DNA of 64,000 bases, taken from an uncultured Synergistota bacterium. GTDB lineage: Bacteria; Synergistota; JAGHAJ01. Numbering within the stretch: position 1 is the first letter of the stretch; every line of letters begins with the position of its first letter. The stretch lies in contig CAZLJD010000030.1 of assembly GCA_964559865.1 (NCBI GenBank), forward strand, positions 125,196 to 189,195, written 5' to 3'. This document shows, in pieces, positions 4,173 to 53,834 of the stretch. A program made the translations under genes and the position numbers. The notes beneath the pieces are model-generated. The model was not told the DNA's origin. It did not search any database and worked only from the letters and a program-made list of their open reading frames with translations.

Positions 4173-4501
4173 TCTTCTATGCTGCATCGCTGGCACTCGT
4201 TGCCATAGGTATATATGTGGTCATTTCGAAGAGAAATCTCATCAAGATCATCATAGGGCTCGATATGATAGATACGGGTGTGAACCTCCTTTTGATTTCC
4301 ATAGGATATGTCCGTGGGGGAACGGCACCTATAGAAAATGGTAACTATCCGCTTTATGTGGATCCAATCCCTCACGCATTGGTTCTTACTGCTATAGTAA
4401 TAGGGGTTTCCGTTATGGCTCTCGCCCTTTCTATAGTGATAGGTCTTTATAGACATACTGGTACGCTTGAGATAGACGAGATAAGGGGGCTTGTAAAGTG
4501 A
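4169..4501 (+). CDS. Mrp subunit C / NuoK-like (MbxG-type)
   Basis: 110-aa three-helix protein resembling NuoK/MrpC; GTG start overlapping upstream stop. Confidence 0.75.
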   Translation: MIFYAASLALVAIGIYVVISKRNLIKIIIGLDMIDTGVNLLLISIGYVRGGTAPIENGNYPLYVDPIPHALVLTAIVIGVSVMALALSIVIGLYRHTGTLEIDEIRGLVK

Positions 4502-5919: not shown

Positions 5920-5920
5920 G

Positions 5921-7735
5921 ATGGGGCATCAGGACTTGTTCTGGCTATTTGTGATTCTTCCGGCATTTGGTGGTATCCTTTCTTTTTTTCTTGAGAGGTA
6001 TGCAGTGGCTGTTGCAACGCTCTTCAGTGGAGTAGTGCTTGCATTTGCTATGTTTGGCTATGGTATGGCTGGGATGGGGGTACTGCATGTTGGGTTTGAG
6101 ATGCACCTTTCCTTGGATGCTGTATCTTGGTTCTTCATGGTAATGATAGACCTCGTTGGGTTTGTTGCTCTTATGTTTTCAATGGAGTTTATTACAGATG
6201 GTAAGGGGAGCTTTTCCTTCTTTATGTTGCTTGCGTTGGCGGGTGCAAACGGCGTCGTAATGTCAAGGGATTTTCTATCCCTGTATATCTTTTGGGAGAT
6301 CATGTCTTGGTCTGTTTTCCTATTGGTGTTGCGGAGCTCTGGGGAGTGGGCTAAAAAATACATCGTTTTTGCCGTAATTTCTGCTGTGCTCTTGCTGATG
6401 GGTATAGGTGTTGTGTACCATTATTCTGGTAGCTTGGTGTATAGTGGTGCGGTGAAGGGGCTGTCTCTGTCTGCGTGGGGTGTTGCATTGTCTCTTCTGA
6501 TTGTTGGCTTTATGGTGAAAATGGCCGTTGTGCCGTTGCATGTGTGGGCACCGTATGCCTATTCTTCTGAACAGACATTTGTTGCGTTCTTGTCTGGGGG
6601 TTTAAGTAAGCTTGGTACATTTGGAGTACTCGTGGTGATGTATATGGCTGCAGGTGTTTCCGTGATGCACGGTTTTGGCGTTTTTAAGAATGTTTCACTG
6701 TTTGGTTATCCTTTTGCTCTGCTCGGTGCAATCACAGCTTTTGTGGGTACTATAGTTGCTGTGTTTCAAGATGACATAAGAAAACTCCTTGCGTATTCCT
6801 CTATTGGGCAACTTGGTTATGTAATGGTTGGTTTGGGACTTGGTATGCCACTTGCCGTTGGGGGGGCGATCTTTCACGCTTTTAACCATGCGATGTTTAA
6901 GTCCGTACTGTTTATGGGGGTAGCGGCGGTCTTCTATAGAGTAAAGACATACAGGATAAGTGAGATGGGCGGTTTGGGTTACAAGATGCCGTTTACATTT
7001 TTGGCGGTGCTTACGGCTATATTTGGTCTTGCTGGCATACCTGTAACATCTGGCTTTATTTCGAAGTGGATGCTTTACGAAGCGGCAATTCAGAACAGAT
7101 TTGTCATAATTGCTCCTCTCATGCTGGTTGCCTCTGTCGGGGCGTTTCTGTATTGCTTCAGAATCCTCTACGGGGTATTCCTGGGTCAGATAGATAGGGG
7201 TAAAGAAGAGGTAAAAGAGGTTGGCGTTTGGATGCTTTTACCGATGTACATCCTTGTTGTACCTCTTTTGCTCTTTGCACTGTTTCCTGGTTGGATACTT
7301 GCTTGGATAAATGACATGTTGGTCTACATGAATGTGGGAAGGTTGAGCTATACTACTTACAGTTTTTCCTCTCTTATAGGTAATGCAGATATGCTACTGT
7401 TTCTTGGTTCGTTCTTCGTTGCGTTTGCTATAGCTGTGGCACTGTTCGTTAAGAGACCTGCAACAAATGTAGACCAGTATGATAATTACCTCTCTGGAGA
7501 GGTAAGGGAGTATGTAAGGTTGCATGCTGCTTATAACTTTTACAAACCCCTGAAGGATGTGTGGGCACCACTCCTCAACAGGAGTATAGATAGAGGGTAC
7601 GATGCCTTTGGGAAGATGCTGGGGGTTGTGTTTGATAGGGTTAAACTCTTTTACACGGGCAATCCTCAGGACTATGCTGCCTATGTTGGTTTAGCGTTTC
7701 TCATATTTGTAGTGGTTGGATGGTGGTTGAGATGA
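5921..7735 (+). CDS. second antiporter-like subunit, NuoL/MrpA family (MbxH'-type)
   Basis: 604-aa polytopic protein with AYSSIGQLGY and HAFNHAMFKS blocks; RBS GGGAGGAA. Confidence 0.85.
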   Translation: MGHQDLFWLFVILPAFGGILSFFLERYAVAVATLFSGVVLAFAMFGYGMAGMGVLHVGFEMHLSLDAVSWFFMVMIDLVGFVALMFSMEFITDGKGSFSFFMLLALAGANGVVMSRDFLSLYIFWEIMSWSVFLLVLRSSGEWAKKYIVFAVISAVLLLMGIGVVYHYSGSLVYSGAVKGLSLSAWGVALSLLIVGFMVKMAVVPLHVWAPYAYSSEQTFVAFLSGGLSKLGTFGVLVVMYMAAGVSVMHGFGVFKNVSLFGYPFALLGAITAFVGTIVAVFQDDIRKLLAYSSIGQLGYVMVGLGLGMPLAVGGAIFHAFNHAMFKSVLFMGVAAVFYRVKTYRISEMGGLGYKMPFTFLAVLTAIFGLAGIPVTSGFISKWMLYEAAIQNRFVIIAPLMLVASVGAFLYCFRILYGVFLGQIDRGKEEVKEVGVWMLLPMYILVVPLLLFALFPGWILAWINDMLVYMNVGRLSYTTYSFSSLIGNADMLLFLGSFFVAFAIAVALFVKRPATNVDQYDNYLSGEVREYVRLHAAYNFYKPLKDVWAPLLNRSIDRGYDAFGKMLGVVFDRVKLFYTGNPQDYAAYVGLAFLIFVVVGWWLR

Positions 7736-11305: not shown

Positions 11306-14116
11306 ATGAGAAAGAGAATAGCTGTACTTGTTGTTTCCATGCTGGCTATTATGGTGTCTATTATCTACTTTGTGGATAGGTGGGTGCTCATAGATTACAT
11401 AAGCTCCCAGCTGTCTACCTCATTTCGTCAGAGGCTCTCCGGCATAAGACAGCTCGTGGATGGTGGGGTAACTGCGAGTAAGCTTGTTAGAGAGTACAGA
11501 GGATATGTCACCAATCTGGTATTGGAGGATGACCTTCAGAGGGTAAAGGCATTCTTGCAGATGTGTGATTCGTGGTCGAAGGCAGGTATACTGAGTGAGG
11601 ATGATGCAAAAAGGCTTGCGCTGAGCTACTTAAAGTCGGTTGGTGCCTATGTGTTGAACTCTTCGGGTAAAGCGCTCGTTTTCCCTGTCTACATTGAGAA
11701 GTTTTCCAAGAGTTCCGGAAGGCATGTGGGTTGGAGGAGGTTTGCTCCCTGGGGCTGGAAGATAGGAATGGTAATGAGTGAGAGGGATATCTTTGGTGTG
11801 CAGTATGGAGGCTTTGAGAAGCGGATAAAGAGTGCTGTCTTGAAGAGGATTAGTTACATGCCCTCTAATGGATCTTATGTGGTGGTATACAACAGGCGTG
11901 GCAGGATCATATCCTATCCTCACAGAAAGGTTTCTGCGGATGACCTACCAAGTTCTCCTTATGTGAAGAAGGTGTTTTCGCTTAAGAGTGGTAGTTTTAC
12001 CTATTCTTTTAACGGTAAGAGAAAAGAGAGGGTGTTCTCTTATGTGCCACTTATTGGGTGGTACATAGTCTTTACTGCTTACCCTGATGAGATGTGTTAT
12101 CCGATGCTTGTGAATATGCTGAAAGGGGAACTACCGACTGTTGTGGTTATATTGGTGTTATTAGGAGCCCTTGGGTTGTACGCGTGGAACAAATGTGTGC
12201 TCCTTCCACTTACGCAGGTAACGACAGGATTTGAGGAGCTTGGCAAGGGAAACTACAACTACAAGTTAGACCCCGATACCATAAGATACCCTTATATGAA
12301 AAGCCTTTTTAAGGACTTTAACTATATGATAGAAAAGCTCAAAGAGGGAGAAGAGGAACTCGTCAGGGCTTACAGGAAGTTAGAGGTGCTCAATGCAAGT
12401 ATATCACGCAGATATGAGGACCTCCAAAGGGAGCTTGAAAGGTTAAGGGTTTTGGACGCAATAATATCTGCCACGATCGGACTTGTGGATCACAAGGAGA
12501 TAGCTGCCCGTGTTGTAGATACGCTGGCTTCTACTGGGAGGTATAGTGATATAGGTATCCTGCTGAAGGAGGGAGATCTCCTTAAACGACTTGCGCATCA
12601 CGGTATAGTGTGGAGTAAGTTTGAGCAGTTTCCCATTAATAGTGGAGTGACCGGATGGGCGGTTAGGGATAAGGAGATAAAAAATGTTCCCAATGTTTTG
12701 GCTGAGAGTCACTATGTTGAAGGGAATGCCGCTGTCCGTTCTGAGCTTGCGTGTCCTATAGTCCTTGGTACAGATGTCGTGGGTGTGGTGGATGTGGAGA
12801 GTATGGAACCCTCTTACTTCGTTAGGGATGATGAGCTTATGCTTAGGATGGTGAGTGACTACCTTGCGATGGTCTTCCGGAGGGCTGACTCTGTGAAGTT
12901 GCTTCAGAGAAGACTTAAAGATATGGGCTTTTTACTGCGTCTGCTTAGGAGCGTCTCTAAGACGGAGCACATAGGTGAGCTGTCGAAACAGGTATGCGAG
13001 ATGGTGCAGGAGTATGGTGATTACAATAATGTGACGATGTACATTAGGGACGGGAATTTGCTGGTTTTAACCTATATTGCCGGTTTGCCCATACCTGAAG
13101 ATGTGTATAAGGTAGATTGGGGGATAATCAGTATCTATGGGAAAGGGATATCTGCCAGGGCGGCAAGGACTGCGGAGATGCAGAATGTTCCGAACTGCCT
13201 TGAGGACCCTGATTATCTGGTGGGGGATCGCACCACCAAGAGTGAGCTTGCCGTTCCAGTAAAAGTGGGAAATGAGGTTTTTGCGGTATTGGACTTAGAG
13301 TCAAACGAGTTCAATGCGTTTGGTAAGGAGGATGAGAGGCTGCTTTACCTGATTGCTGAGAACCTTGGGGCAATAATTCGGAGGGTGGAACTGGTGGAGG
13401 GGCTTGAAAGCACCGTTAAGGCACTGGAGGAGAGGAATAAGGAGCTCACACTCAAAGATGAGGAGCTGGAAGTTTCTGTTGAACAGCTTAGGGCCTATAC
13501 TCGGGAGCTTGAGAGCGTTCATCGTGATATGGTACAAAAGGAGACGGAACTTGAGGAAGCGTACTTGGATACCATAAAGGCTCTGGCAAGGGCTATAGAG
13601 ATGAAGGATCCATATGCGAGGGGACACACTACGAAGGTGGCAAGCTATGCGTTGAAGGTGGGGGAGGCTCTAGGACTAAGTGAAGAGGATATGAGGAATC
13701 TCTTGTATGCAGCGATCCTTCACGATATAGGCAGGATAGGACTTAAAGGGGCTGTTCTCGACAAACCTCATGAACTCACAGAAAAGGAAATAGAGTATAT
13801 AAAGGGGTATCCTGCAAGAGGTGCAAGTGTGCTAATGCAGATAGACTACCTTAGAGATGTGGCAAATGTGGTTTTGCACCACCAGGAGAGATGGGATGGT
13901 AGTGGCTATCCTGCAGGTTTAAAGGGAGAAGAGATACCGCTTTTGAGTAGGATTATAGCAGTCGTTGATGCCTATGATGCCATGATCTCTGATAGACCTT
14001 ACAGAAAGGCACTCTCAAAGGAAGAGGCGTTGAGGAGGATAAAGGAGTCTGCGGGGACGCAGTTTGACCCGAGGATTGTGGATGTCTTTTTGAAAGTTGT
14101 AGGGGAAGAGGAGTAA
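11306..14116 (+). CDS. membrane sensor with periplasmic domain, two GAF domains and C-terminal HD-GYP c-di-GMP phosphodiesterase domain
   Basis: Two TM segments flanking a ~250-aa extracytoplasmic region, coiled coils, GAF-like regions, then HD-GYP (LHDIGRIG ... HHQERWDGSGYPAGL). Confidence 0.85.
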   Translation: MRKRIAVLVVSMLAIMVSIIYFVDRWVLIDYISSQLSTSFRQRLSGIRQLVDGGVTASKLVREYRGYVTNLVLEDDLQRVKAFLQMCDSWSKAGILSEDDAKRLALSYLKSVGAYVLNSSGKALVFPVYIEKFSKSSGRHVGWRRFAPWGWKIGMVMSERDIFGVQYGGFEKRIKSAVLKRISYMPSNGSYVVVYNRRGRIISYPHRKVSADDLPSSPYVKKVFSLKSGSFTYSFNGKRKERVFSYVPLIGWYIVFTAYPDEMCYPMLVNMLKGELPTVVVILVLLGALGLYAWNKCVLLPLTQVTTGFEELGKGNYNYKLDPDTIRYPYMKSLFKDFNYMIEKLKEGEEELVRAYRKLEVLNASISRRYEDLQRELERLRVLDAIISATIGLVDHKEIAARVVDTLASTGRYSDIGILLKEGDLLKRLAHHGIVWSKFEQFPINSGVTGWAVRDKEIKNVPNVLAESHYVEGNAAVRSELACPIVLGTDVVGVVDVESMEPSYFVRDDELMLRMVSDYLAMVFRRADSVKLLQRRLKDMGFLLRLLRSVSKTEHIGELSKQVCEMVQEYGDYNNVTMYIRDGNLLVLTYIAGLPIPEDVYKVDWGIISIYGKGISARAARTAEMQNVPNCLEDPDYLVGDRTTKSELAVPVKVGNEVFAVLDLESNEFNAFGKEDERLLYLIAENLGAIIRRVELVEGLESTVKALEERNKELTLKDEELEVSVEQLRAYTRELESVHRDMVQKETELEEAYLDTIKALARAIEMKDPYARGHTTKVASYALKVGEALGLSEEDMRNLLYAAILHDIGRIGLKGAVLDKPHELTEKEIEYIKGYPARGASVLMQIDYLRDVANVVLHHQERWDGSGYPAGLKGEEIPLLSRIIAVVDAYDAMISDRPYRKALSKEEALRRIKESAGTQFDPRIVDVFLKVVGEEE

Positions 14117-34370: not shown

Positions 34371-35420
34371 ATGCCGACTAAGTTTTCTTTGGAGACCATG
34401 AGTGCTGCCTTCAAGTTGATGAGAGATATTGTTGGTGTGAAAGAGGGAGAGAGTGTTGTTATAACTGCAGATACGGGTAGTGACTGGAGTGTGGTTGAGG
34501 CTGTGGCAAAGGCATCGACTTTGCTGGGAGCAAAGCCGATGGTGGTATGGTATCCTATGCCACTGGGAGTGGGTAAGGCGGCTGACCCTTACTTGCCACA
34601 GAAACCGTTGGAGGCTGCGGTTTCCAGTGCAGATGTCTGGATAGAGTTTAACATGGGGTGGCTGCTCTATTCTACTGTTTGGGATAATGTGATGGCAGAG
34701 GGTAGTGTTAGGTATCTGTGTTTGGTCGGCATGGGCGTGGACATGTTGGTTAGAACGGTAGAACGGGTTGATGTCGATCTTGTGCTTGAATTCCAGGATA
34801 AACTCGTTGAAGTAACCAAAAGCACACGCAAGATGAGGCTTACCTCTCCTGTGGGTATGGAGCTTGAATTTGAGAATGACCCAGCAAGACCGATTTTCAC
34901 GGAGGGGCGTGTCATGGGTCCAGGGGATTACATGTTGATGGGACAGGTAGACTGGGCACCGATTGAAGAGAGCATAAATGGGGTTTTGGTCTTTGATGGA
35001 TCTGTCTATCCACCAGAGGATGTTGGACTTTTGCGTGCTCCTATATTTTTGGAAGTAGAGAAAGGTCGTGTAGTTTCTGTGAAAGGTGGCTCTGAAGCTA
35101 AGAGGTTTGAGAGATGGCTCAAGAGTTTTGATGACCCTGGTATGTTTAATATAGCTCATATCTCTTATGGGTGCAACCCAGGAGCAAAGCTAACGGGTAA
35201 TATCCTTGAGGATGAGAGGGTCTGGGGTGCTGTGGAGTGGGGGATTGGTAATCAGGCAGATAGCTTCAAAGGGTTAGCGGGTCCTGCTAAGAGCCATACA
35301 GACGGCATATGTTTGAATCCCACACTGATTGCTGATGGGGAGTACCTTATAAAGGATGGAAGTTATGTTCATCCACTGCTTGCAGATATGGAAAAGAGGA
35401 TAATCGGGTCTTCTGGGTGA
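34371..35420 (+). CDS. M29-type aminopeptidase-like protein
   Basis: C-terminal blocks EDERVWGAVEWGIGN and HTDGI resemble AmpS/PepS-family metalloaminopeptidases; tentative. Confidence 0.45.
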   Translation: MPTKFSLETMSAAFKLMRDIVGVKEGESVVITADTGSDWSVVEAVAKASTLLGAKPMVVWYPMPLGVGKAADPYLPQKPLEAAVSSADVWIEFNMGWLLYSTVWDNVMAEGSVRYLCLVGMGVDMLVRTVERVDVDLVLEFQDKLVEVTKSTRKMRLTSPVGMELEFENDPARPIFTEGRVMGPGDYMLMGQVDWAPIEESINGVLVFDGSVYPPEDVGLLRAPIFLEVEKGRVVSVKGGSEAKRFERWLKSFDDPGMFNIAHISYGCNPGAKLTGNILEDERVWGAVEWGIGNQADSFKGLAGPAKSHTDGICLNPTLIADGEYLIKDGSYVHPLLADMEKRIIGSSG

Positions 35421-35497
35421 GCTGGCGGATTCTTTGTATTGACAAAGTGGGCAGTTTGGGGTATCCTTTGTGTGGAAGAAGGGGGGAGGTATCAGGA

Positions 35498-36292
35498 ATG
35501 AAGAGGATAAGAGGGTATATGATTTTCTTTGTGGTGGTTGGAATTCTGGTGTCTTTGTTTTCAACGCTTGCTTTTGCGAAGAGTAATAAGGTGTATGAAG
35601 AATACAAGAAGACGCTTGCGCAGTTTCAGAAGACAGTGGTATATAGAGGGAAGAGGGCTCGTATTTCTATTACTGTTACGTACTACTCTGCAAAGCTGGT
35701 GGATGCCATAGTGAACTGGGAAGCCGAAAAGCACCTGTGGACGGAGGACGAGGCAGAAAACTACAAGTATCAGCTGTTGAAGACATTACACTTTGAAGAT
35801 ATGCTCCCGTTCAAAATTTCCATAGATAATAGAGGACCGAGCATGCACCCGGCACCGTTTGGTTCTAAGGTTACTCTTTGGATAGACAGCAAGAGCTACA
35901 AACCTAAGAAGTACGACTTGAGGTTTAACTTTAAGATAATAGGGAAAAGGGAAGGTATGGTCTTCTTTGCGAGGAGAGGCAAGAATGGGAAGCCGATAAT
36001 AAAGCCGTCGTCCTCTCTCATGCAGATAGTTATAGACAGTTCCATAAGCCCGGTGACCAGTGGGCGGAATTTTGACTTTACATTTAAGTGGGGACATCCT
36101 TACGAGAATCTCGAGGCGCTTGCGAAAGCCGATATAGCCAGAGCCCGTTTAGAGATTGATAGGCTTATGAGGAGGATACAGAGGCTTACGGATAAAAAGA
36201 AGGAGCTTCTGGAACAGTTGAAAAAGATAGAACAAGAGATCGAAATGATAAAGAAGAGAATAAGTGAGCTTGAAAGCGTAAAAGAGAAGTGA
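35498..36292 (+). CDS. hypothetical secreted/membrane-anchored protein with C-terminal coiled coil
   Basis: ATG 35498 preceded by GGGAGGT; N-terminal signal-like segment; K/E-rich heptad region at C-terminus. Confidence 0.5.
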   Translation: MKRIRGYMIFFVVVGILVSLFSTLAFAKSNKVYEEYKKTLAQFQKTVVYRGKRARISITVTYYSAKLVDAIVNWEAEKHLWTEDEAENYKYQLLKTLHFEDMLPFKISIDNRGPSMHPAPFGSKVTLWIDSKSYKPKKYDLRFNFKIIGKREGMVFFARRGKNGKPIIKPSSSLMQIVIDSSISPVTSGRNFDFTFKWGHPYENLEALAKADIARARLEIDRLMRRIQRLTDKKKELLEQLKKIEQEIEMIKKRISELESVKEK

Positions 36293-36302
36293 GGAGTTGG
36301 AG

Positions 36303-36887
36303 TTACGCGACGGCATCAAACCCGCTGCCTACTAACCCGGGTAGCGGGTTTATGTTTTCTGGTAGAGCTTTGTTGTTTTGGGCGAGTTCTATCCGTATCA
36401 GGATACTTTTGAGATTTCTAATCTTCTCCCTGAGCCTTTCTGCTTTTTGCCCTTCTGCAGGGTTGTTTTCTTCTTCTTGGAGTTTTTGAGAGAGTATCTG
36501 TATCTCTCGTTGGATTCGCTCTTTCAATCTCTTTGTACGAACCTTCTTTGCATCTATGTGGTTGGTGTTGCCGTTTGTCTCCTTATTTTTAGGTAGTGCT
36601 GTGTTAACTTTTTTGTGTTTTGGGAAGATGATATACGCCTTGGATTCACCAGACCTTGCAGCCAGAAATGAGCCAACAAACTGTCTGTTTAGATATATGT
36701 TTTCATATATGACTATACCACCTTTTTCCATCGCTTCTGCCTCGAAGCGGTGGATATTCCCCAATTCGTGGGATGCTACCCGTAGAACGCTTTGACTTGC
36801 GCTTGCAGGAGCAGCTATCCCCATCTCTCCTGGGTCGAGCTTATAGTAAAGAATAGGATTTGATACCGCTGTCAATCCTCTTAACAT
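36303..36887 (-). CDS. hypothetical protein (uncertain ORF)
   Basis: 194-aa ORF with GGTGA before ATG and a K/E/Q-rich coiled-coil C-terminal half; its last ~15 codons are encoded by the terminator hairpin of the convergent gene. Confidence 0.3.
   Translation of the reverse strand: MLRGLTAVSNPILYYKLDPGEMGIAAPASASQSVLRVASHELGNIHRFEAEAMEKGGIVIYENIYLNRQFVGSFLAARSGESKAYIIFPKHKKVNTALPKNKETNGNTNHIDAKKVRTKRLKERIQREIQILSQKLQEEENNPAEGQKAERLREKIRNLKSILIRIELAQNNKALPENINPLPGLVGSGFDAVA
36318..36360 (+). terminator. intrinsic terminator after the 35498-36292 gene
   Basis: aaacccgctgcc / gggtagcgggttt stem followed by ATGTTTTCT T-rich tract. Confidence 0.55.
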
Positions 36888-39508: not shown

Positions 39509-39539
39509 GTTTTTATCACAAATGCAGGGGGATTTTTTT

Positions 39540-39881
39540 ATGCACGAGCTCGGTGTTACGCAGGAAATATTTAACATAGTTATGAGAGAAGCAAAGAAGC
39601 ATGGTGCAAAGAGGGTTTTGAAGGTTGAAGTGGAGGTGGGAGAGTTTAGTACGATAGAGCCCGAGCCTGTGAAGTTGTATTTTGAGGTTGTGAGTAAGGG
39701 TAGTATAGCTGAAGGTGCAGAGGTGGAAGTCAGGAAACTGCCCATAAGGGTGAAGTGTAATAGTTGTGGTCATGAGTATACGGCGGAGAAGTATGATCTC
39801 ACCTGTCCGAGGTGTGGGAGTATAGATGTTGAGATAATAGGGGGGAGGGAGCTGATAGTCACAAAGATAGATGTGGAGTAG
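39540..39881 (+). CDS. hypA: hydrogenase nickel-insertion protein HypA
   Basis: MHELGVTQEI N-terminus (HypA MHE motif) and zinc finger CNSCGH ... CPRCGS. Confidence 0.85.
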   Translation: MHELGVTQEIFNIVMREAKKHGAKRVLKVEVEVGEFSTIEPEPVKLYFEVVSKGSIAEGAEVEVRKLPIRVKCNSCGHEYTAEKYDLTCPRCGSIDVEIIGGRELIVTKIDVE

Positions 39882-39886
39882 CTTTT

Positions 39887-39915
39887 TTGACAAAGTTGCA
39901 AAGGTGTAGTATAAT
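39887..39915 (+). promoter_or_regulatory. consensus sigma70 promoter (TTGACA, 17-nt spacer, TATAAT) for the phasin-like / radical SAM pair
   Basis: TTGACA 39887-39892, TATAAT 39910-39915; RBS GGGGGGTGG precedes ATG 39943. Confidence 0.6.
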
Positions 39916-39942
39916 TATGCTAACTTTGGGGGGTGGTAGTTT

Positions 39943-40275
39943 ATGATAGAGCTACTGAGGAAGTTTTTGTTCAGTGGTTTAGGTGTAGTGGCGTTTACGA
40001 AGTCGCAGTTAGATGCGCTTGTTAAAGAGTTGGTCAGTAAGGGCGAGATGAGTGAAGAGGAGGGTAAAAAGATAGTTGAGGAGTTTACCAAGAGGATGGA
40101 AGTGAAGAAAGAAGAGATGATATCCACTATCAGGCAGGAGATAGGAAAGCTGTTTGATGTGGTAGATATACCTTCAAAGGCAGAGGTGAATGAGATAAAG
40201 CGTATGCTCAAAGCCTTGGAAAATAGGATAGAACTCTTAGAAGGAGTTGTCACTGACATTAAGAAGGGGGGATAA
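39943..40275 (+). CDS. phasin-like coiled-coil protein
   Basis: 110 aa, K/E-rich predicted helical protein resembling phasin/granule-associated proteins; no catalytic motifs. Confidence 0.5.
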   Translation: MIELLRKFLFSGLGVVAFTKSQLDALVKELVSKGEMSEEEGKKIVEEFTKRMEVKKEEMISTIRQEIGKLFDVVDIPSKAEVNEIKRMLKALENRIELLEGVVTDIKKGG

Positions 40276-40278
40276 CTC

Positions 40279-41751
40279 GTGGATATTCTTACCAGAGCGA
40301 AGGGGTATGTTTCTGCACAGGTAATGAAAGGTGTAGCGGCTTTTCTCTCTAAAGCGTCAGATGCACATGTGAAGAAGGTGTTTTTACTCCTTTCGAGAAT
40401 GTCTCCCACCAAGTTTCATAGAGAGACTTTCAGGGGTATTGCAGATATGGCGGACCAAAACCACCCGTTTTATGTCTTGTGGAGAAGCATATTTAAGGAC
40501 CTTCATCCAAACTGCAGGAACAAGCTTGTCATAAATTTGCTTGTCAACTCGATGATAATAGGTAGGGGTATCAGAGACAAGAAAGAGAAAGAGTACGATG
40601 TTCACTTGCCGTATTTTATGGTGATTAGTCCGACGATGAAGTGCAATTTGAGGTGTAAAGGTTGTTATGCTGCTAAGTACCCCAAGGCAAAAGAATTAAG
40701 CTTCGAGGATGTGGATAGGATTATTACTGAGGCTAAAGAGCTTGGTATGTACTTCTTTACTATGTCCGGTGGTGAGATATTTACGAGAAAGGATATGTTT
40801 GATATCTGGGAGAAACACAATGATGCTTACTTCCAGCTCTACACCAATGGTACACTCATAACGAGAGATGTGGCAAAGCGCCTTGTAGAGCTCGGGAATG
40901 TGGCCCCTATGATAAGTATAGAGGGTTCTAAGGAGGAGACAGACTGGCGCAGGGGGAAGGGCGTTTACGACAGAGTTATGGAAGCAATGGACATCTTGAG
41001 GGAAGAGGGGGTTTTGTTTGGCTTCTCAGCTACAGCTACGAGAACGAGCACTGAGGCTATATCCAGTGAGGAGTTTATAGACTTTATGATAAGCAAGGGT
41101 GCAAAGGTTGGGTGGTATTTCCAGTACATTCCTACTGGCGATGCACCAGACCTTGAATACATGGCCACTCCTGAGCAGAGAGCCTTGCTCCGTGAGAGAG
41201 TTCGAGAGTATCGTAAGACCAAGCCGATATTCCTCGGTGACTTCTGGAATGATGGTTTGTATGTAGATGGTTGTATGGCTGCTGGTGAGAGGTACATGCA
41301 TATCGTTGCAACTGGAGATGTTGAGCCGTGCGTGTTTGCACACTTTGCTGCTGACAATATACATGAGAAGAGCCTTGTAGAAATATTAAAGAGCCCGTTC
41401 TTCACTAAGATAAGAGAGGCAGCGCCTTACGATGATGATAACCTTACGAGACCTTGCATGATCATAGATCATCCGTGGGTGCTTAGAAGGATAGTTAAGG
41501 AGACAGGCGCTCACCCAACGCATCCGGGAGCAGAGATGCTTCTGGGTCCTCTGGCACCCAAGCTGGACGAGTATGCGAGGAGGGTTAAAGAAATATTTGA
41601 TCCTATATGGGAAAAAGAGGATCTTCCACTTTACATGAAGCTCCTTAGCAAAGAGGATAAGCCCTACAACTATGAGAGATTTATGCGTAGGAGGAGAGAG
41701 GTAGAGGAAAGGAGAAAGAAAAAAGAGACCGAAGAGATTTTGACGAAGTGA
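40279..41751 (+). CDS. radical SAM protein with N-terminal extension and Cys-containing C-terminal region; function unknown
   Basis: CNLRCKGC (Cx3Cx2C) at ~residue 122; additional conserved-looking Cys (GCMAAG, EPCVFAHF, RPCMIIDHP); GTG start after AAGAAGGGGGGA. Confidence 0.8.
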   Translation: MDILTRAKGYVSAQVMKGVAAFLSKASDAHVKKVFLLLSRMSPTKFHRETFRGIADMADQNHPFYVLWRSIFKDLHPNCRNKLVINLLVNSMIIGRGIRDKKEKEYDVHLPYFMVISPTMKCNLRCKGCYAAKYPKAKELSFEDVDRIITEAKELGMYFFTMSGGEIFTRKDMFDIWEKHNDAYFQLYTNGTLITRDVAKRLVELGNVAPMISIEGSKEETDWRRGKGVYDRVMEAMDILREEGVLFGFSATATRTSTEAISSEEFIDFMISKGAKVGWYFQYIPTGDAPDLEYMATPEQRALLRERVREYRKTKPIFLGDFWNDGLYVDGCMAAGERYMHIVATGDVEPCVFAHFAADNIHEKSLVEILKSPFFTKIREAAPYDDDNLTRPCMIIDHPWVLRRIVKETGAHPTHPGAEMLLGPLAPKLDEYARRVKEIFDPIWEKEDLPLYMKLLSKEDKPYNYERFMRRRREVEERRKKKETEEILTK

Positions 41752-41787
41752 GGTAGCTCTTTGCCAATATAGTTTGTGAGACTTTAA

Positions 41788-41820
41788 AAGGGTGGGACAT
41801 ACTCTCACCCTTTTTTATTT
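41788..41820 (+). terminator. intrinsic terminator after the radical SAM gene
   Basis: agggtg / caccct stem with 11-nt loop followed by TTTTTTATTT. Confidence 0.6.
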
Positions 41821-43405: not shown

Positions 43406-44737
43406 ATGAAGATACTAATAGTTGGTGCTGGGGAAGTGGGGTTTAACCTTGCGAAGGTTTTGTCTTCCGAGGAGCACGATGTCGTTGTTGTGGACATAGA
43501 TGAAGACAAGGTATCTCGCGTGAAAGAAAGGCTTGATGTTATGACTATAAAGGGCAGTGGTTCAAAGCTGGGTATCTTGGAGAAGGCTGGAGTTGGTACA
43601 GATGTGGACATGATAATCGCAGTTGCTAACAGCGACGAAACGAACATAGTGTCCTGTATGTTTGGCAAAAAGCGGGGAGTTTCCACTACAGTTGCAAGAA
43701 TGAGAGACCTGAGGTATTCTGACAGAGATGCTACCTTTTCTCACAAGGAGCTCGGTATAGACTTTGTCGTGAGTCCTGAGAGGGTGATCTCAGAGGAGAT
43801 AGTGGAACTCTTGGCGTTGCCGTCTGCCATACAGGTTGCATATTTCTTTGATGGAAATGTGAAGATGTACGGCGTAAACATTAGAGAGGGACATGTGCTT
43901 GAGAATGTGAGGTTGAAGGACTTTGAAAGTATTGGGTGGAGGGGGGTTTTTCTTGTAGCTATTGTTGTTAGGGGTGGCAGGAGTTTCATTCCCAGAGGGG
44001 ATGACGTGCTGTTGAAGGGTGATAAGGTCTTTGTGTTGGGAAAGTCTGCCGACTTTGATCGGTTTAAGAGGGGAATCAAGAGTGTCATGATAGTTGGTAG
44101 TGGAAAGGTTGGATTTAGGGTAGCGAGGAGACTTTCTTCTATGGGAGTGCCTTTTGTGAAGGTAATAGATGTGGATAAGGAGAAGTGTCAGAAGGTTGCG
44201 ATGGAGTTGCACGATGTAGTTGTGTTGAATGGTGATGGTACTGACCTTGAATTTTTGATAAGGGAGGGTGTAGGTGAGGTGGACGGCTTCGTTACTACGA
44301 CGAGAAATGACGAGGTGAACTTGCTCTCTGCTGTGCTTGGGAAGTCTGCTGGAGCTACAAAGAGCATAGCGCTCGTCAGAAAGATAGATTACATGAACCT
44401 TTTGCCGTATCTTTCTATAGACTCTATCGTGAATCCCCGTGTTGATGTTACATCTGCGATCTTGAGGTTTATCAGGAGGAGGGGTTTTGTTAGTGGTGTT
44501 TATTTAGAGGGGGTAGATGTTCAGGCGTTGGAGCTGGTGGTCTCTGAGGATGCCCCTGTTGTGGGTAAGAGTCTGGTGGAGCTGAGGGGTTCTCGTGATT
44601 TTATCGTTGGTGCTATTATGCGTGGGGGAGATGTCTTTATCCCCAAAGGGGATGACCACATAGAGGGTAGTGACAGGGTGATAGTATTTTCTCCCACATC
44701 CAAAGTAAGTAAGGTGGAGAGGCTCTTCGTGGGGTAG
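43406..44737 (+). CDS. trkA: Trk potassium uptake regulatory protein TrkA (two RCK domains)
   Basis: Two NAD-binding Rossmann starts (MKILIVGAGEVG and IVGSGKVG) each followed by an RCK C-domain. Confidence 0.9.
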   Translation: MKILIVGAGEVGFNLAKVLSSEEHDVVVVDIDEDKVSRVKERLDVMTIKGSGSKLGILEKAGVGTDVDMIIAVANSDETNIVSCMFGKKRGVSTTVARMRDLRYSDRDATFSHKELGIDFVVSPERVISEEIVELLALPSAIQVAYFFDGNVKMYGVNIREGHVLENVRLKDFESIGWRGVFLVAIVVRGGRSFIPRGDDVLLKGDKVFVLGKSADFDRFKRGIKSVMIVGSGKVGFRVARRLSSMGVPFVKVIDVDKEKCQKVAMELHDVVVLNGDGTDLEFLIREGVGEVDGFVTTTRNDEVNLLSAVLGKSAGATKSIALVRKIDYMNLLPYLSIDSIVNPRVDVTSAILRFIRRRGFVSGVYLEGVDVQALELVVSEDAPVVGKSLVELRGSRDFIVGAIMRGGDVFIPKGDDHIEGSDRVIVFSPTSKVSKVERLFVG

Positions 44738-44743
44738 GTATCT

Positions 44744-46189
44744 ATGAACATTAGATTGGTTTTCTTCTTCCTTGGCCGTCTGTTGCTTCTTTTGGGGGTT
44801 AGTATGTCATTTCCTCTGTTTTGGGCGTTCTACTATCATGGAAACGACATACTCCCGTTGGTGTATGCGATGTCCATAACGATTGGTGCGGGCTTTTTAT
44901 TCTCGTTTTTGGGAGAGGGTGAAGGTGAGCTTGGGAGAAAGGAAGGGTTTGCCGTTGTGGCCTTTGGTTGGATACTTGCATCTGCTTTTGGTGCCCTTCC
45001 CTATGTCTTTTCGGGTGTTTTGCCTACATTTACGGATGCCTATTTTGAGGCAATGTCTGGTTTTACCACCACTGGGGCGTCTGTTCTTACGCACATAGAA
45101 GGTTCTCCTTTGGGTATATTATTCTGGCGGGACTTTACGCACTGGCTTGGAGGTATGGGTATTATACTCCTGTCTGTTGCAATCTTGCCTGCACTTGGAG
45201 TAGGGGGTATGCAGCTTGTTGCAGCGGAGGTGCCCGGGCCAGTTGCAGAGAAGTTGCGTCCTCGTATAAAGGAGACTGCAAAACTTCTGTGGATTGTGTA
45301 TATAATTTTGTCTGCTGCGGAGGTATTACTCCTATACTTTGGTGGAATGAATCTGTTTGAATCTCTGTGTCACATGTTTGGCACGATGGCTACAGGTGGC
45401 TTCTCGACTCGTAATGCGAGCATAGGTGCATATCACTCTGTATATGTAGATATTGTGATAATAGTGTTTATGTTTATAGCTGGTGCAAACTTTTCACTTC
45501 ACTACTATGCGCTTAAAGGTAGGCTGAAGGTGTACAAAGATGCAGAGTTTCTCTTTTATACGGTCTTTACTGCCTTTTCCGTTTTGCTAATTACCTTTGA
45601 TCTGTGGCATCACCATGTTTACAAGAGTATTGGACAGGATCTGAGATATGCCTCTTTCCAAGCTATATCTATAATGACTACTACGGGATATGCCACGGCT
45701 GACTTTGGTAAGTGGCCGTATCTTTCGCAGTTTTTCCTTTTGTTTCTCATGTTTGTTGGTGGATGTGCTGGTTCAACAGGTGGCGCTATAAAGCACATAA
45801 GGATAATGGTTCTACTTAAGGACGGCGTAAGGAGGTTGTACAGGCTCATACATCCTCGTGCGGTAATGCCTATTGTCTTGAACAAAGAGGTTGTCTCGGA
45901 AGAGGTAGTGGCTGACATACATAGTTTTTTCCTGTTGTATATGCTTATGTTTGTGGTGGCTACGATCTATATGAGTTCTCTTGGATTGGATACGATAACG
46001 GCAATATCTTCCGTTGCTGCTACACTTGGCAATATTGGTCCAGGCCTTGCACGAGTTGGCCCGGCACAGAATTATGCGTTTGTGCCAGTAGCAGGCAAGT
46101 GGTTGCTGAGCATGTGCATGCTGCTCGGAAGGCTTGAGATATATACGGTATTGGTTTTGTTGCTTCCTACTACTTGGAGGAAGGTTTGA
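44744..46189 (+). CDS. trkH: Trk/Ktr potassium transporter membrane subunit TrkH
   Basis: 481-aa polytopic protein with repeated selectivity-filter-like glycine motifs (MSGFTTTGAS, MTTTGYAT). Confidence 0.9.
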   Translation: MNIRLVFFFLGRLLLLLGVSMSFPLFWAFYYHGNDILPLVYAMSITIGAGFLFSFLGEGEGELGRKEGFAVVAFGWILASAFGALPYVFSGVLPTFTDAYFEAMSGFTTTGASVLTHIEGSPLGILFWRDFTHWLGGMGIILLSVAILPALGVGGMQLVAAEVPGPVAEKLRPRIKETAKLLWIVYIILSAAEVLLLYFGGMNLFESLCHMFGTMATGGFSTRNASIGAYHSVYVDIVIIVFMFIAGANFSLHYYALKGRLKVYKDAEFLFYTVFTAFSVLLITFDLWHHHVYKSIGQDLRYASFQAISIMTTTGYATADFGKWPYLSQFFLLFLMFVGGCAGSTGGAIKHIRIMVLLKDGVRRLYRLIHPRAVMPIVLNKEVVSEEVVADIHSFFLLYMLMFVVATIYMSSLGLDTITAISSVAATLGNIGPGLARVGPAQNYAFVPVAGKWLLSMCMLLGRLEIYTVLVLLLPTTWRKV

Positions 46190-50113: not shown

Positions 50114-50223
50114 TTTGCATACCTCCTTTTGATTTTTGATTGCTTACAATAATTATACAGTATGAGGGTTGGTAGTCAAGTGCCAGTGGTGGTGTATAAT
50201 ATACACCTGAAGGGGTGAGTGGA

Positions 50224-51339
50224 ATGAAGTTGCGTCTGTTTTACATTACTGCTGGTATGGGACACAAAGTTGCTGCTGAAGTTATAGCAGATGTGGTACG
50301 ACAGACTGGGATGGAGTGCGAGAGTATCGACTTACTTGGATTTGCCAATCCACTGGTGAGGTGGATGTATAGCAGATTCTATGAAATTATGGAGAGTCAT
50401 TCCCATGTTGCCTGTCGTTTGTTTTACAGGTTGGCCAGTTTGATTGGGAGTAACAGGAAGGTATTTTCTCCCATGATTAGAGGTATAGTATATACTATGA
50501 GGAGACCTATGAAGGTTATAAGGGACTGCGATCCGGATCTTGCAGTGTGCACACACTTCCTACCGATCCTTATGCTCTCCTTTATGAAGAAAAAAGGTAG
50601 GTTTCATGGTAAGGTGGTAGCTGTTATCACCGATTACACGCTTCACAGCTTGTGGGTAGATGAGGTGGTGGATCTCTACATTGCACCTAACAGAACTGTA
50701 GCGGATGCACTTGTGGAGAGTGGCATAAGTGACAGTCGGGTAGTTGCCTCTGGCATACCTGTGGCACCGCAGTTCTCTGAGGTTGTCGGCAAAGATAAGC
50801 GTTTGCTCAGAAAAGAACTCTCTATTCCGCAGGATGATTTTGTCGTTCTCTTCGTGGCAAGCGGACTGCCGACCAGAAGATCTCTGAAAATAGTGTCTAC
50901 GATAATGCAGATAGATTTTCCGATGACCTTTGTTGTCGTTGCAGGCAGAGGTAACTCCATGGACAGGCACCTTGAGAAAGTGAAGGCCTCTAACTGCGTT
51001 AACTTGGTGAAACACGGTTTTGTGAGTGATATACACCGGTTACTGAGAGCTGCAGATCTGATCGTAACGAAGCCCGGTGGACTCACCGTTTCAGAGAGCC
51101 TGGCAGTTGGGTTACCCCTTGTGATGATTTATCCCGTTCCTGAACAGGAGGAAGAGAACATGAGATATGTTGTGTCTGAAGGGGCAGGTGTTTATGTAGA
51201 GGACTTGAATGAGATTCCTGTTATCATTCGGAGATTTCGTGAAGACCCTGAACTCTATGAGAGTTATGCGACTAATGCAACTCGTATAGGCAAACCCTTT
51301 GCCGTGTTTGAGATAGTGAATAATCTGCTTGAGATGTGA
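50224..51339 (+). CDS. GT28-family diacylglycerol glycosyltransferase (MGDG-synthase-like)
   Basis: ITAGMGHKVAA N-terminal motif and C-terminal GT-B fold blocks (IVTKPGGLTVSESLAVGLPLV); ATG 50224 preceded by AGGGGTGAGTGGA. Confidence 0.7.
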   Translation: MKLRLFYITAGMGHKVAAEVIADVVRQTGMECESIDLLGFANPLVRWMYSRFYEIMESHSHVACRLFYRLASLIGSNRKVFSPMIRGIVYTMRRPMKVIRDCDPDLAVCTHFLPILMLSFMKKKGRFHGKVVAVITDYTLHSLWVDEVVDLYIAPNRTVADALVESGISDSRVVASGIPVAPQFSEVVGKDKRLLRKELSIPQDDFVVLFVASGLPTRRSLKIVSTIMQIDFPMTFVVVAGRGNSMDRHLEKVKASNCVNLVKHGFVSDIHRLLRAADLIVTKPGGLTVSESLAVGLPLVMIYPVPEQEEENMRYVVSEGAGVYVEDLNEIPVIIRRFREDPELYESYATNATRIGKPFAVFEIVNNLLEM

Positions 51340-51747: not shown

Positions 51748-52746
51748 TCAGCATATCCTTGGGAGCTGTTCTCCTACGAGTGAGTCTACGATCCGCTTTC
51801 CCCCTATGTTTGTCTTCATTGCGACAATACCGGGGTGCTTGGCTGTAACCTCTCCTATGATTGCTGCGTCTCTGCCAAGGGGGTGTCTTTTCATTGTGTT
51901 AAGTATTTCTTCTGCTGCCTCTGGGGCTGCAAAAAGAAGGAACTTCCCCTCGTTTGCGAGGTACAGCGGATCAAAACCAAGGATCTCGCAGTATGCCTTT
52001 ACATCGGGTTTGATTGGTATCTTTGACTCCTCTATCTCTATGCCTAAGGTGTTATTAGCCAGAAATTCATTCAACACTGTCCCCAACCCACCTCGGGTTA
52101 CATCTCTCATAGCGTGTATGTCCTTCGTTTTTGGGAGGAGCTCCCTTACCAATGGGTATACAGATGTACAATCACTTCTGAGCCCTTTGGGCAATTCTAG
52201 TCCGTTTCTAAGTGCCATAAGAGTTATAGAGTGTTCGCCCAGGCTACCACTGAGTATTATTTTATCCTTCTCTGATATCCTGTGTGGACCTATATCTATC
52301 CCATCTGGAATAACACCTATGCCGGCTGTATTAATAAAGATCTTGTCTACCTTTCCCCTTTCCACAACCTTTGTATCGCCTGTGACTATCTCTACCTCGT
52401 TCTCTTTTGCTGTAGCTGATATGGACTTTATTATTTCCTCAAGCGTATCTTCTGAAAGTCCCTCTTCTATTATAAGTGAGAGACTCAAGTACATAGGGGT
52501 TGCACCAACCATGGCAAGGTCGTTTATCGTGCCTGTTACGGAGAGTTTGCCTATGTCTCCCCCGGGAAAGAACAGGGGTGAGACGGTGTGTGAGTCGGTG
52601 GTAAATGCGATCCTTGTTGCAGATATATTGAGTACGGCAGAATCCGTAAGTTGTGAGAGTATAGGATTTCCTATTTTCGGCATCAGTCTGTTTTGAATGA
52701 GCTCCCTACTCAGCTTTCCACCGCTCCCGTGATCTAATGTTATCAT
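51748..52746 (-). CDS. hypE: hydrogenase maturation carbamoyl dehydratase HypE
   Basis: MITLDHGSGG N-terminus, AIR-synthase-like fold blocks, C-terminal PRIC motif. Confidence 0.9.
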   Translation of the reverse strand: MITLDHGSGGKLSRELIQNRLMPKIGNPILSQLTDSAVLNISATRIAFTTDSHTVSPLFFPGGDIGKLSVTGTINDLAMVGATPMYLSLSLIIEEGLSEDTLEEIIKSISATAKENEVEIVTGDTKVVERGKVDKIFINTAGIGVIPDGIDIGPHRISEKDKIILSGSLGEHSITLMALRNGLELPKGLRSDCTSVYPLVRELLPKTKDIHAMRDVTRGGLGTVLNEFLANNTLGIEIEESKIPIKPDVKAYCEILGFDPLYLANEGKFLLFAAPEAAEEILNTMKRHPLGRDAAIIGEVTAKHPGIVAMKTNIGGKRIVDSLVGEQLPRIC

Positions 52747-53834
52747 ATCACCTTACCTCCATACTTGTAGTAGGCAGCACAACTCCCTTCGGTTGATACC
52801 ATGCAGGGACCTACAGGCTCTAAAGGTGTGCACGCCTTTCCAAAAAGAGGGCACTGATAGGGTTCAATTATCCCTTTGAGGACATCTCCACACCGACATC
52901 CGGGTGGATCTTTACTCTCAAGTTTAGGTATCTGGAATCGCTTTTCTGCGTCTATGTGAGTAAAGTCCCCTTTTAGCTGCATGCCTGACATCGGTATCGT
53001 GCCGATGCCTCTCCACTGTACATCTGTTGTTTGAAATACTTCCTTTAATACTGCTTGTGCTTCTTTGTTTCCCTCCTTCTTTACCACATATCTGTAAGCG
53101 TTTTCCACTGCAGGAGTTCCTTCTGCAATCTGGGATACCATTCGATATATGGCGTACAGGATCTCTGAGGCTTTAAATCCCCCTATAACGGCAGGTTTGT
53201 GGTATCTCTCTGGTATGAAGTGGTAAGGTTTTTCGCCTATTACTACACTCACATGTCCGGGGCACAAGAATCCGTCTATGGCAATATCTTTATCTTCCAA
53301 CAGCATTTGCATTACGGGAGGTATTACCTTGTGCATAACCACTATGGATAGGTTTTTTATCCCTTTTTGAACGACCTCTTTTGCCAGCACAGCAGTTGCA
53401 GGTGCTGTAGTCTCGAAACCCACACCCAGAAAGACCACTTCTTTGTCAGGATTGTGCTTAGCGATCTCTATGGAATCTGTTGCTGCATACACTATCTTTA
53501 CCGTTGCACCTCTGGCTATAGCCTTTCTCAAAGAGTTGCCGTTGCTACCGGGGACCCTTATCATGTCTCCGTAAGTTGCTATAATGACGCCCTTTTGCTG
53601 GCTCAACCATATAGCTTTATCTATCTCCGATGTCGGTGTTACACACACTGGACATCCAGGTCCGCTGATGAAATTTACTTCCGGGGCGATGGCTTCCCTT
53701 ATGCCATATCTGAACATGTTTACTGTGTGAGTCCCGCAAACTTCCATAAATCGTAGATTTCGGGGTGCTTTTTGCTTTATCTTTTTGATGAGTGTTTCGG
53801 TCCACTCGGGATTGTCCCAGTCAGGAAGACTCAA
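52743..53834 (-). CDS. hypD: hydrogenase maturation factor HypD
   Basis: MEVCGTHT, GPGCPVCVTP, GFETTAP, CPGHVS motifs and C-terminal Cys cluster. Confidence 0.9.
   Translation of the reverse strand: MSLPDWDNPEWTETLIKKIKQKAPRNLRFMEVCGTHTVNMFRYGIREAIAPEVNFISGPGCPVCVTPTSEIDKAIWLSQQKGVIIATYGDMIRVPGSNGNSLRKAIARGATVKIVYAATDSIEIAKHNPDKEVVFLGVGFETTAPATAVLAKEVVQKGIKNLSIVVMHKVIPPVMQMLLEDKDIAIDGFLCPGHVSVVIGEKPYHFIPERYHKPAVIGGFKASEILYAIYRMVSQIAEGTPAVENAYRYVVKKEGNKEAQAVLKEVFQTTDVQWRGIGTIPMSGMQLKGDFTHIDAEKRFQIPKLESKDPPGCRCGDVLKGIIEPYQCPLFGKACTPLEPVGPCMVSTEGSCAAYYKYGGKVI

Follow-up and report, generated by a model that had tools for sequence, protein, structure and literature searches.

A phasin/UbiK-like protein gene coupled to a radical SAM enzyme gene in an uncultured Synergistota bacterium, a candidate two-part unit for membrane-lipid remodelling

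In a stretch of 64,000 nucleotides from an uncultured Synergistota bacterium (GenBank assembly GCA_964559865.1, contig CAZLJD010000030.1, positions 125,196 to 189,195 of the forward strand), hereafter the window, a gene for a small phasin/UbiK-like protein is directly followed by a gene for a radical S-adenosylmethionine (SAM) enzyme, and the two form a compact, translationally coupled two-gene unit. The chances appear even that this operon is a two-part membrane-lipid remodelling unit, i.e., a tail-coupling enzyme of the Mss type together with a lipid-handling accessory. The enzyme most likely adds a member to a recently recognised family; what is new is its recurrent linkage to the phasin/UbiK-like protein and to ABC1/UbiB proteins. 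No report of this gene linkage was found in a literature search; the papers on Mss consulted describe the enzyme without an accessory protein, an ABC1 kinase or a phasin, and phasin, ABC1 and UbiB have no mention at all in PMC13274423. An earlier note, drawn up from the letters of this DNA, had viewed the small protein as a possible scaffold or as a membrane- or granule-associated partner of a lipid- or peptide-modifying enzyme, and its idea of a lipid partner proved broadly right.

Regarding the organisation of the unit, the open reading frame (ORF) list gives a small ORF of 110 amino acids (aa) with an ATG start (39943-40275, +) and a radical SAM ORF of 490 aa with a GTG start (40279-41751, +; PF04055), the product of the former being K/E-rich and helical, as the earlier note had it, with three helices predicted. 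The sigma-70-type promoter TTGACA-17-TATAAT described there as perfect indeed matches 12 of the 12 consensus positions (39887-39915, +); it starts 6 nt past the hypA stop codon and ends 28 nt ahead of the small ORF's ATG, its exact match is unique in the window when both strands are considered, and 0 of 100 shuffles gave one. The ribosome-binding site (RBS) GGGGGGTGG precedes this ATG, and the GTG of the enzyme comes 3 nt past the TAA of the small ORF, with a GGGGGG RBS lying inside the 3' end of the latter. Downstream, the clean terminator also reported earlier corresponds to a hairpin at 41786-41814 (+) with a 12-bp stem, AAAAGGGTGGGA / TCTCACCCTTTT, a 5-nt loop and a T-rich tail reaching 41820; its folding energy is -22 kcal/mol, with a z-score of merely -1.9, and it stands 10 nt upstream of the murJ start codon. 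No terminator was found between hypA (stop at 39881) and the operon promoter, and read-through from hypA is therefore possible.

The pairing of the small gene with the enzyme gene is real but facultative. The loci of the enzyme family considered here (numbered with the prefix L, as are further loci compared) are the best 80 of 585 from a genome scan, and in 7 of these 80 a hidden Markov model (HMM) of the small protein detects the small gene at most 5 kb from the enzyme gene, against some 0.5 of 80 expected by chance (binomial p of about 2e-6, a rough value obtained under an assumed 0.7% per locus). About seven divergent lineages show the pairing, and the paired enzymes, 41-67% identical to each other, cover the breadth of the family. 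The small gene stands directly upstream of the enzyme gene in the window and in L081, L082, L086, L009, L012, and L013. In the nearest relatives, namely L081 and L082 (enzyme identity of 64-67%), it overlaps the enzyme start and lies downstream of secDF; in the other Synergistota, namely L086, L009, L012, and L013, the order reads secD-secF-phasin-radical SAM-lapA-recJ-relA. An ABC1/UbiB gene is found in further arrangements, i.e., helix-turn-helix (HTH)/transmembrane (TM) regulator-phasin-ABC1/UbiB kinase-radical SAM in the Bacillota loci L024 and L083, radical SAM-phasin-ABC1 in an unclassified bacterium (L044), and radical SAM-PagL-phasin-ABC1 in an Omnitrophota metagenome-assembled genome (MAG; L067). 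In L039 and L087, the phasin gene precedes a gene for monogalactosyldiacylglycerol (MGDG) synthase, the radical SAM gene being about 3 kb away. As for loci free of the enzyme, the small gene is directly upstream of ABC1/UbiB in 4/4 (L088, L089, L090, and L092) and directly upstream of the MGDG synthase gene in L085 and L091. Considering every context read, the immediate downstream neighbour of the small gene is thus a membrane-lipid enzyme, with the exception of L084.

Some further neighbours deserve mention in their own right. A LapA-domain membrane protein (lipopolysaccharide assembly protein A domain) is encoded directly downstream of the enzyme in 14 Synergistota loci (L001-L008, L013, L016, and L086; e.g., L086:5791-6153), not in the window, and adds a further envelope-lipid neighbour of the enzyme. 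K/E-rich ORFs downstream of the enzyme were considered as phasin analogues and rejected, as they encode such LapA-domain membrane proteins in Thermovirgaceae and the initiation factor IF-3 in Actinomycetota. A protein of about 250 aa, which combines hydrophobic segments with a winged-helix DNA-binding domain at its N-terminus, is encoded directly upstream of the enzyme in Atribacterota (L049/L050/L052/L053/L073); the same protein type heads the phasin-ABC1-radical SAM cluster of Bacillota (L024:1878-2672 and L083:3173-3880) and is a possible membrane-sensing regulator of the system. The 64%-identical relative has a flavodoxin gene (L081:6545-7018) directly after the radical SAM gene, where it would be a plausible electron donor for the cluster; none occupies this position in the window. 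A tblastn search of the window returned no ABC1 kinase, HTH-TM regulator, LapA or second radical SAM gene of the family. An MGDG-synthase-like glycosyltransferase is encoded at 50215-51339 (+), 8.5 kb downstream of the pair, and a looser glycolipid link may exist in the window since the small gene is directly upstream of MGDG synthase in L085, L087, and L091.

The small protein is K/E-rich (32 K+E) and free of Cys, and neither it nor the enzyme has a TM segment. Its AlphaFold model, with a predicted local distance difference test score (pLDDT) of 86, consists of three long helices (residues 2-32, 38-73, and 79-107), and a hydrophobic N-terminal G-x-G motif is conserved, with G14 invariant (family alignments A2 and A4). 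The qualification as phasin-like stands insofar as the protein passes the NCBIfam model NF047773, "phasin-related domain" (37.6 bits for a cut-off of 35), but not at the level of the Pfam Phasin family PF05597, where it remains below the gathering score (24.1 for 28.8), nor for TIGR01837 (33.1 for 94.7); members of the same family do exceed the Pfam Phasin threshold, namely L088 (49.5) and L087 (32.0). A profile search of 1.84 billion representatives retrieved 5227 of them at E<=1e-3, nearly all stand-alone proteins of about 100 aa. When the family profile A4 was compared by hhalign with a UbiK/BMFP member, which scores 96 bits on PF04380, residues 52-107 (56 columns) aligned with a probability of 75% and an E of 2.5e-5. 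Respective to PF04380 itself, the protein of the window has no Pfam match and that of L081 reaches an E of 0.066; the protein P0187 has both PF04380 and PF05597. In the PDB, Foldseek found no structure matching the small protein below E 2.

Both UbiK (YqiC/BMFP, PF04380) and phasins (PF05597) are likewise small helical coiled-coil proteins of about 100 aa. The likeness to phasins resides in the N-terminal half and the overall profile of the small protein; the likeness to UbiK resides in its C-terminal half and in the genetic linkage of the family to a UbiB-family ATPase/kinase in many lineages. On the other hand, the protein of the window is under both Pfam gathering scores, no UbiJ/SCP2 partner was seen, and its partner in the window is a radical SAM enzyme, with no ABC1 gene present there. 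Ubiquinone is not expected in the anaerobic lineages hosting the small protein. As to a granule-associated partner, the proposal finds no support in the gene neighbourhoods, since the neighbours of the small gene are ABC1/UbiB kinases, MGDG synthases or this enzyme rather than polyhydroxyalkanoate (PHA) genes, of which the scanned window ORFs and 12 contexts of small-protein family members contain none. The small protein may be a facultative lipid-handling accessory of the enzyme.

The enzyme itself displays the features of the radical SAM superfamily, i.e., a CxxxCxxC motif, a partial TIM-barrel core and a SAM-binding GGE motif, and matches the Pfam families Radical_SAM PF04055 at 85 bits and SPASM PF13186 at 31.4 bits. 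Its AlphaFold model, built from an alignment of 73 homologues, has a pLDDT of 92 and a predicted template modelling score (pTM) of 0.91. From the model and the alignments, it begins with a five-helix domain (residues 1-106; 40279-40596, +), which is family-specific, conserves P63, N86, N90, and R99 with a common, not invariant, C79, and is kept in the distant family member L087 (28% identity, E 1e-21). The radical SAM core barrel (residues 113-321; 40615-41241, +), delimited by Pfam, alignment and AlphaFold model, carries at residues 122-129 the CNLRCKGC located near residue 122 by the earlier note, with the cluster ligands C122, C126, and C129 encoded at 40642-40665, followed by GGE at 164-166 and by the family signatures GW-FQYIP-G (278-287) and DFWNDG (321-326). 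Next comes a twitch-type (partial SPASM) auxiliary-cluster domain (residues 326-395; 41254-41463, +), where the Pfam SPASM match covers residues 332-383, and finally a C-terminal helical region (residues 399-490; 41473-41748, +), seen in model and alignment, with two long amphipathic helices (426-456 and 462-489) and a basic tail that varies among homologues. Taken in isolation, the N-terminal and C-terminal parts matched no Pfam family.

Out of 7 Cys overall, six are invariant (C122, C126, C129, C332, C351, and C393), the last three following the pattern C332-X13-G346-X4-C351 ... C393 and being invariant in the 73 sequences as well as in 15 divergent members. The Cys-containing blocks announced for the C-terminal part thus exist as three invariant Cys but do not make a full seven-Cys SPASM domain, which was rejected because only the first half of the motif CX9-15GX4C...CX2CX5CX3C...C is present and the CX2CX5CX3C block is absent. 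With three auxiliary Cys and no such block, the domain is therefore best described as twitch-like, with at most one auxiliary cluster, possibly open or with a non-Cys fourth ligand.

The closest solved structures are the ribosomally synthesised and post-translationally modified peptide (RiPP) maturases SkfB and SuiB, and anSME, and weak NCBIfam matches concern the StsB, WgkB, and mycofactocin maturases. On such grounds, the enzyme could be a SPASM/twitch maturase of a RiPP or a protein, of the sactipeptide, ranthipeptide or sulfatase-maturase type, acting on the small protein or on a peptide whose gene lies elsewhere. This reading is highly improbable and was rejected, as these NCBIfam matches fall far under the family cut-offs, the N-terminal domain is made of five helices and is not the winged helix of a RiPP recognition element (RRE), and no protease, transporter or short precursor ORF, Cys-rich or otherwise, lies nearby, in agreement with the earlier note's failure to see a precursor peptide. 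Moreover, the small protein, devoid of Cys, belongs to a large conserved helical family usually found beside ABC1 kinases, and the enzyme family, about 50% identical from phylum to phylum, sits in housekeeping contexts, unlike RiPP clusters. Between the two substrate types once envisaged, the lipid option is the one favoured by all context evidence, while the peptide option is disfavoured.

In HMM classification, the enzyme is assigned to PF04055 and to a partial SPASM (twitch), but no characterised family is reached, since no NCBIfam equivalog attains its cut-off in the NCBIfam scan; the best scores are 106 bits for NirJ2 (cut-off of 500), 99 for AhbD (TIGR04545; 500), and 76 for NirJ (515). 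A tetrapyrrole enzyme of the AhbD/NirJ type was rejected, given scores of about one fifth of the cut-offs and neighbours, hypA and murJ, which offer no ahb or nir context. Identity with Tes/GDGT-MAS (PDB 7TOL/7TOM; GDGT standing for glycerol dialkyl glycerol tetraether) was likewise rejected, as sequence similarity is restricted to the core with an E of 5e-4, the N- and C-terminal domains are unlike, and six invariant Cys are too few for three [4Fe-4S] clusters; Tes, in work by Lloyd and co-workers of 2022, is reportedly endowed with three [4Fe-4S] clusters plus a rubredoxin-like iron. A viperin of antiviral defence was discarded too, PADLOC giving generic viperin-core similarity only.

As far as distribution is concerned, homologues of the enzyme number 4216 at E<=1e-5, and a 97%-identical copy occurs in a Synergistota MAG. 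Among the best 80 of 585 loci, members 45-60% identical are found in Synergistota, Atribacterota, Actinomycetota, Armatimonadota, Poribacteria, Omnitrophota, Planctomycetia, and Chloroflexota (Dehalococcoidia), as well as in Zixibacteria, Eisenbacteria, several groups of the candidate phyla radiation (CPR), and Woesearchaeota. Mss was described as a radical SAM enzyme of Thermotoga maritima and Thermoanaerobacter ethanolicus that joins two fatty-acyl tails to form diabolic or iso-diabolic acid (Sahonero-Canavesi et al., 2022, Sci Adv, PMC13159169), with Tmari_0825 of T. maritima and WP_129545148.1 of T. ethanolicus as validated proteins, and its homologues, defined by at least 30% identity and E<=1e-50 to validated Mss, were listed in Synergistetes, Atribacterota, Actinobacteria, Armatimonadetes, gamma-Proteobacteria, candidate phyla, and DPANN (PMC13159169). 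In Black Sea MAGs, Mss homologues were found in Actinobacteriota, Armatimonadota (7/13), Poribacteria (14/29), Omnitrophota, and Patescibacteria, with Woesearchaeia as sole archaea (PMC11868695). This published distribution, i.e., anaerobes, candidate phyla and DPANN/Woesearchaeia as the only archaea, is matched by the hosts of the present family, plasmid hosts included. In addition, Mss and the present enzyme are both radical SAM proteins with CxxxCxxC, occur in anaerobes of the same unusual phyla, from Synergistota to Woesearchaeota and gammaproteobacteria, and are both just remotely related to Tes. Because the unusual list of phyla coincides, the family probably corresponds to what the literature calls Mss homologues; as to whether this member really makes membrane-spanning lipids, we would lean neither way.

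The plasmid hosts are an observation apart. Full-length homologues comprising the N-terminal domain (38% identity, E 8e-96) are encoded on IncF plasmids of Enterobacteriaceae, namely L093:2254-3633 on pEA5_1 of Escherichia albertii and L094:7037-8338 on pFF1023_1 of Klebsiella pneumoniae, where they adjoin rep genes and IS66 elements and are annotated just as "radical SAM protein". Such a host is unexpected for a lipid enzyme of anaerobes.

The context evidence would also suit an enzyme modifying membrane lipids or other hydrophobic molecules otherwise than by the tail-to-tail coupling of Mss, e.g., a Gms-like intramolecular bridge, a methylation-independent cross-link or a reaction on isoprenoid or quinone-type lipids, with the phasin/UbiK-like protein and ABC1/UbiB supplying the substrate. 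The same linkage to lipid genes holds for such an enzyme, including the linkage to ABC1/UbiB proteins, which are classically tied to prenyl-quinone lipids. However, many of the host phyla (CPR, DPANN, and Synergistota) are not known for quinones, which counts against a quinone lipid. Regarding Gms, the architecture is alike, i.e., an N-terminal extension of about 100 aa before an AhbD/NirJ-like SPASM/twitch radical SAM core, with NirJ2 and AhbD as best NCBIfam matches here; for the extension of Gms, a hydrophobic pocket holding lipid was predicted (Garcia et al., 2024, PNAS, PMC11214058). Nevertheless, Gms is 36% identical to AhbD with an E of 7e-79 (PMC11214058), whereas the present enzyme attains only 99 of the 500 bits of the AhbD model. 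Gms as defined bears a COG4001 N-terminal domain and is usually clustered with tes, mss or gmm, whereas the N-terminal domain found here has no match among Pfam families and no tes, mss or gmm gene is linked to this operon, nor did tblastn of the window reveal a tes or mss-like second radical SAM gene nearby. Two auxiliary clusters are proposed for Gms, compared with one at most here, and the published bacterial homologues of Gms come mainly from Acidobacteria, Planctomycetes, and Aerophobetes, with their genes clustered with tes or mss. Gms proper was rejected for want of close AhbD similarity and of a second lipid radical SAM gene in the window, and a lipid chemistry other than that of Mss is unlikely.

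Several points weigh against an Mss-type enzyme working with a lipid-handling accessory. About 70 of the 80 family loci have no small gene nearby and lie in unrelated housekeeping contexts, e.g., secDF, thrS-infC-rplT, purD, or rtcB. In the window, no ger/plsA, ABC1 or other fatty-acid gene stands beside the pair. Cultured producers of diabolic acid (Thermotoga, Thermoanaerobacter, Dictyoglomus, and Butyrivibrio) are missing among the 240 best matches and the best 80 of 585 loci; the assignment to Mss is based on distribution and architecture rather than on alignment to validated Mss sequences, and GDGT-MAS is just the tenth-best structural match of the enzyme. A natural knockout is also provided by two syntenic Synergistota contigs of 77% nucleotide identity (L084:4315-4510 compared with L086:4318-5757), where L084 has the enzyme gene cleanly deleted to a 41-aa stub with its first codons and keeps the phasin-like gene and lapA; the small protein therefore has a function of its own. 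The gene pair described by the earlier note is conserved in the nearest relatives and recurs across the lineages sharing the gene order, but as a facultative one.

Pushed further, the same facts could mean that the pairing is incidental, the small protein being an ordinary phasin of PHA granules or a general coiled-coil protein and the enzyme an unrelated housekeeping one, e.g., for tetrapyrrole or cofactor maturation of the AhbD/NirJ type. The majority of family loci without the small gene, the loss of the enzyme in L084 with retention of the small gene, the similarity of the small protein to Pfam Phasin and TIGR01837, the rank of NirJ2 and AhbD as best HMM matches of the enzyme, and the hyp genes nearby all go in that direction. 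Against it, an overlapping or abutting gene order recurs in three arrangements and in lineages whose enzymes have diverged down to 41% identity (and up to 67%), the window ORFs scanned comprise no PHA synthase, heme d1 or alternative heme genes, and the NirJ2 and AhbD scores stay at one fifth of their cut-offs; an incidental pairing is thus improbable.

For the substrate, the C-C coupling chemistry, any contact of the two proteins and the part played by the smaller one, we infer the following course for a membrane-lipid remodelling unit. The [4Fe-4S] cluster held by C122, C126, and C129 would reductively cleave SAM, and the resulting 5'-deoxyadenosyl radical would act on a phospholipid acyl chain running through a pocket that the family-specific N-terminal helical domain helps to form, taking a hydrogen from the omega or omega-1 carbon of this chain. 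The intermediate may be held or redox-managed by the single auxiliary cluster (C332/C351/C393), and once a second chain is activated likewise by a second SAM-dependent hydrogen abstraction, a C-C bond would join the tails into a membrane-spanning lipid of the diabolic-acid type. Such a scheme, with two hydrogen abstractions and a C-C coupling, was demonstrated for Tes and postulated for Mss. A soluble enzyme acting on the ends of acyl chains would need these chains to be lifted from the midplane of the bilayer, and a lipid-presenting helper is plausible. The 110-aa protein could dock on the membrane surface via its conserved hydrophobic N-terminal helix and recruit or open the lipid-pocket domain at the N-terminus of the enzyme, so docking the soluble enzyme on the membrane or presenting it with hydrophobic tails. 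This putative helper role is suggested because UbiB-family ATPases are considered to draw hydrophobic lipids out of membranes, the lipid-sequestering ubiquinone (Ubi) metabolon, which contains UbiB, has the small coiled-coil protein UbiK as an accessory factor, and phasins coat hydrophobic surfaces. A third component, an ABC1/UbiB ATPase, would join them in Bacillota and certain other lineages; elsewhere, the same small protein would serve lipid-extracting ATPases of the ABC1/UbiB type and glycolipid synthases.

Going one step further, the phasin/UbiK-like protein, together with the ABC1/UbiB ATPase and the HTH-membrane regulator in some lineages, might represent a dedicated lipid-extraction and presentation module without which soluble Mss-type enzymes work poorly, a conjecture we put forward tentatively and hold to be rather unlikely. 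So far, Mss activity was shown by low-yield heterologous expression only, and co-expression of Mss and Ger in Escherichia coli yielded no membrane-spanning lipids (PMC11604127); a missing helper is therefore a useful and testable idea. If true, the accessory module could explain the weak or irreproducible activity of Mss in E. coli (PMC11604127), bacterial synthesis of membrane-spanning lipids would be a multi-component system with overlooked accessory parts, and UbiB-family proteins of anaerobes would gain a role unrelated to quinones. Branched GDGTs and diabolic-acid lipids serve as major palaeoclimate proxies and lie at the heart of the debate on the "lipid divide", and their bacterial producers and enzymology are poorly defined. 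In this respect, the conserved, co-translated putative helper and the recurring phasin-ABC1/UbiB-radical SAM order provide a concrete hypothesis on how a soluble radical enzyme would reach acyl ends buried in the bilayer. A family of unannotated proteins of about 100 aa, with about 5,000 clusters, is thereby placed in a lipid context, as are the ABC1/UbiB kinases of anaerobes. This significance is limited by the facultative character of the pairing and by the grounds of the Mss assignment, namely distribution and architecture. The natural deletion pair L086/L084 lends itself to comparative lipidomics.

The genes flanking the operon are hypA (39537-39881), a TauE exporter, a gamma-glutamyltranspeptidase, and murJ, none of them obviously related to the pair; trkA/trkH-like ORFs follow at 43406-46189, their names coming from a reading of the translations. 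The hyp maturation genes are split, with hypA alone (+) just upstream of the operon and hypD together with a hypE-like gene 12 kb off on the minus strand (51748-53834). Antiporter subunits of the Mrp/NADH-dehydrogenase type at 4498-7735 suggest a membrane-bound hydrogenase or an Mrp complex, and hyp genes along with such membrane subunits fit an anaerobe. At 34371-36887, three consecutive ORFs of 349 aa (+), 291 aa (+), and 194 aa (-) have no Pfam match, the 291-aa product exhibiting a signal-like hydrophobic N-terminus and a K/E-rich coiled-coil C-terminus. At 11306-14116 (+), a 936-aa protein combines two GAF domains with a C-terminal HD_5 domain of the HD-GYP type and is probably a cyclic-di-GMP phosphodiesterase or a signalling protein.

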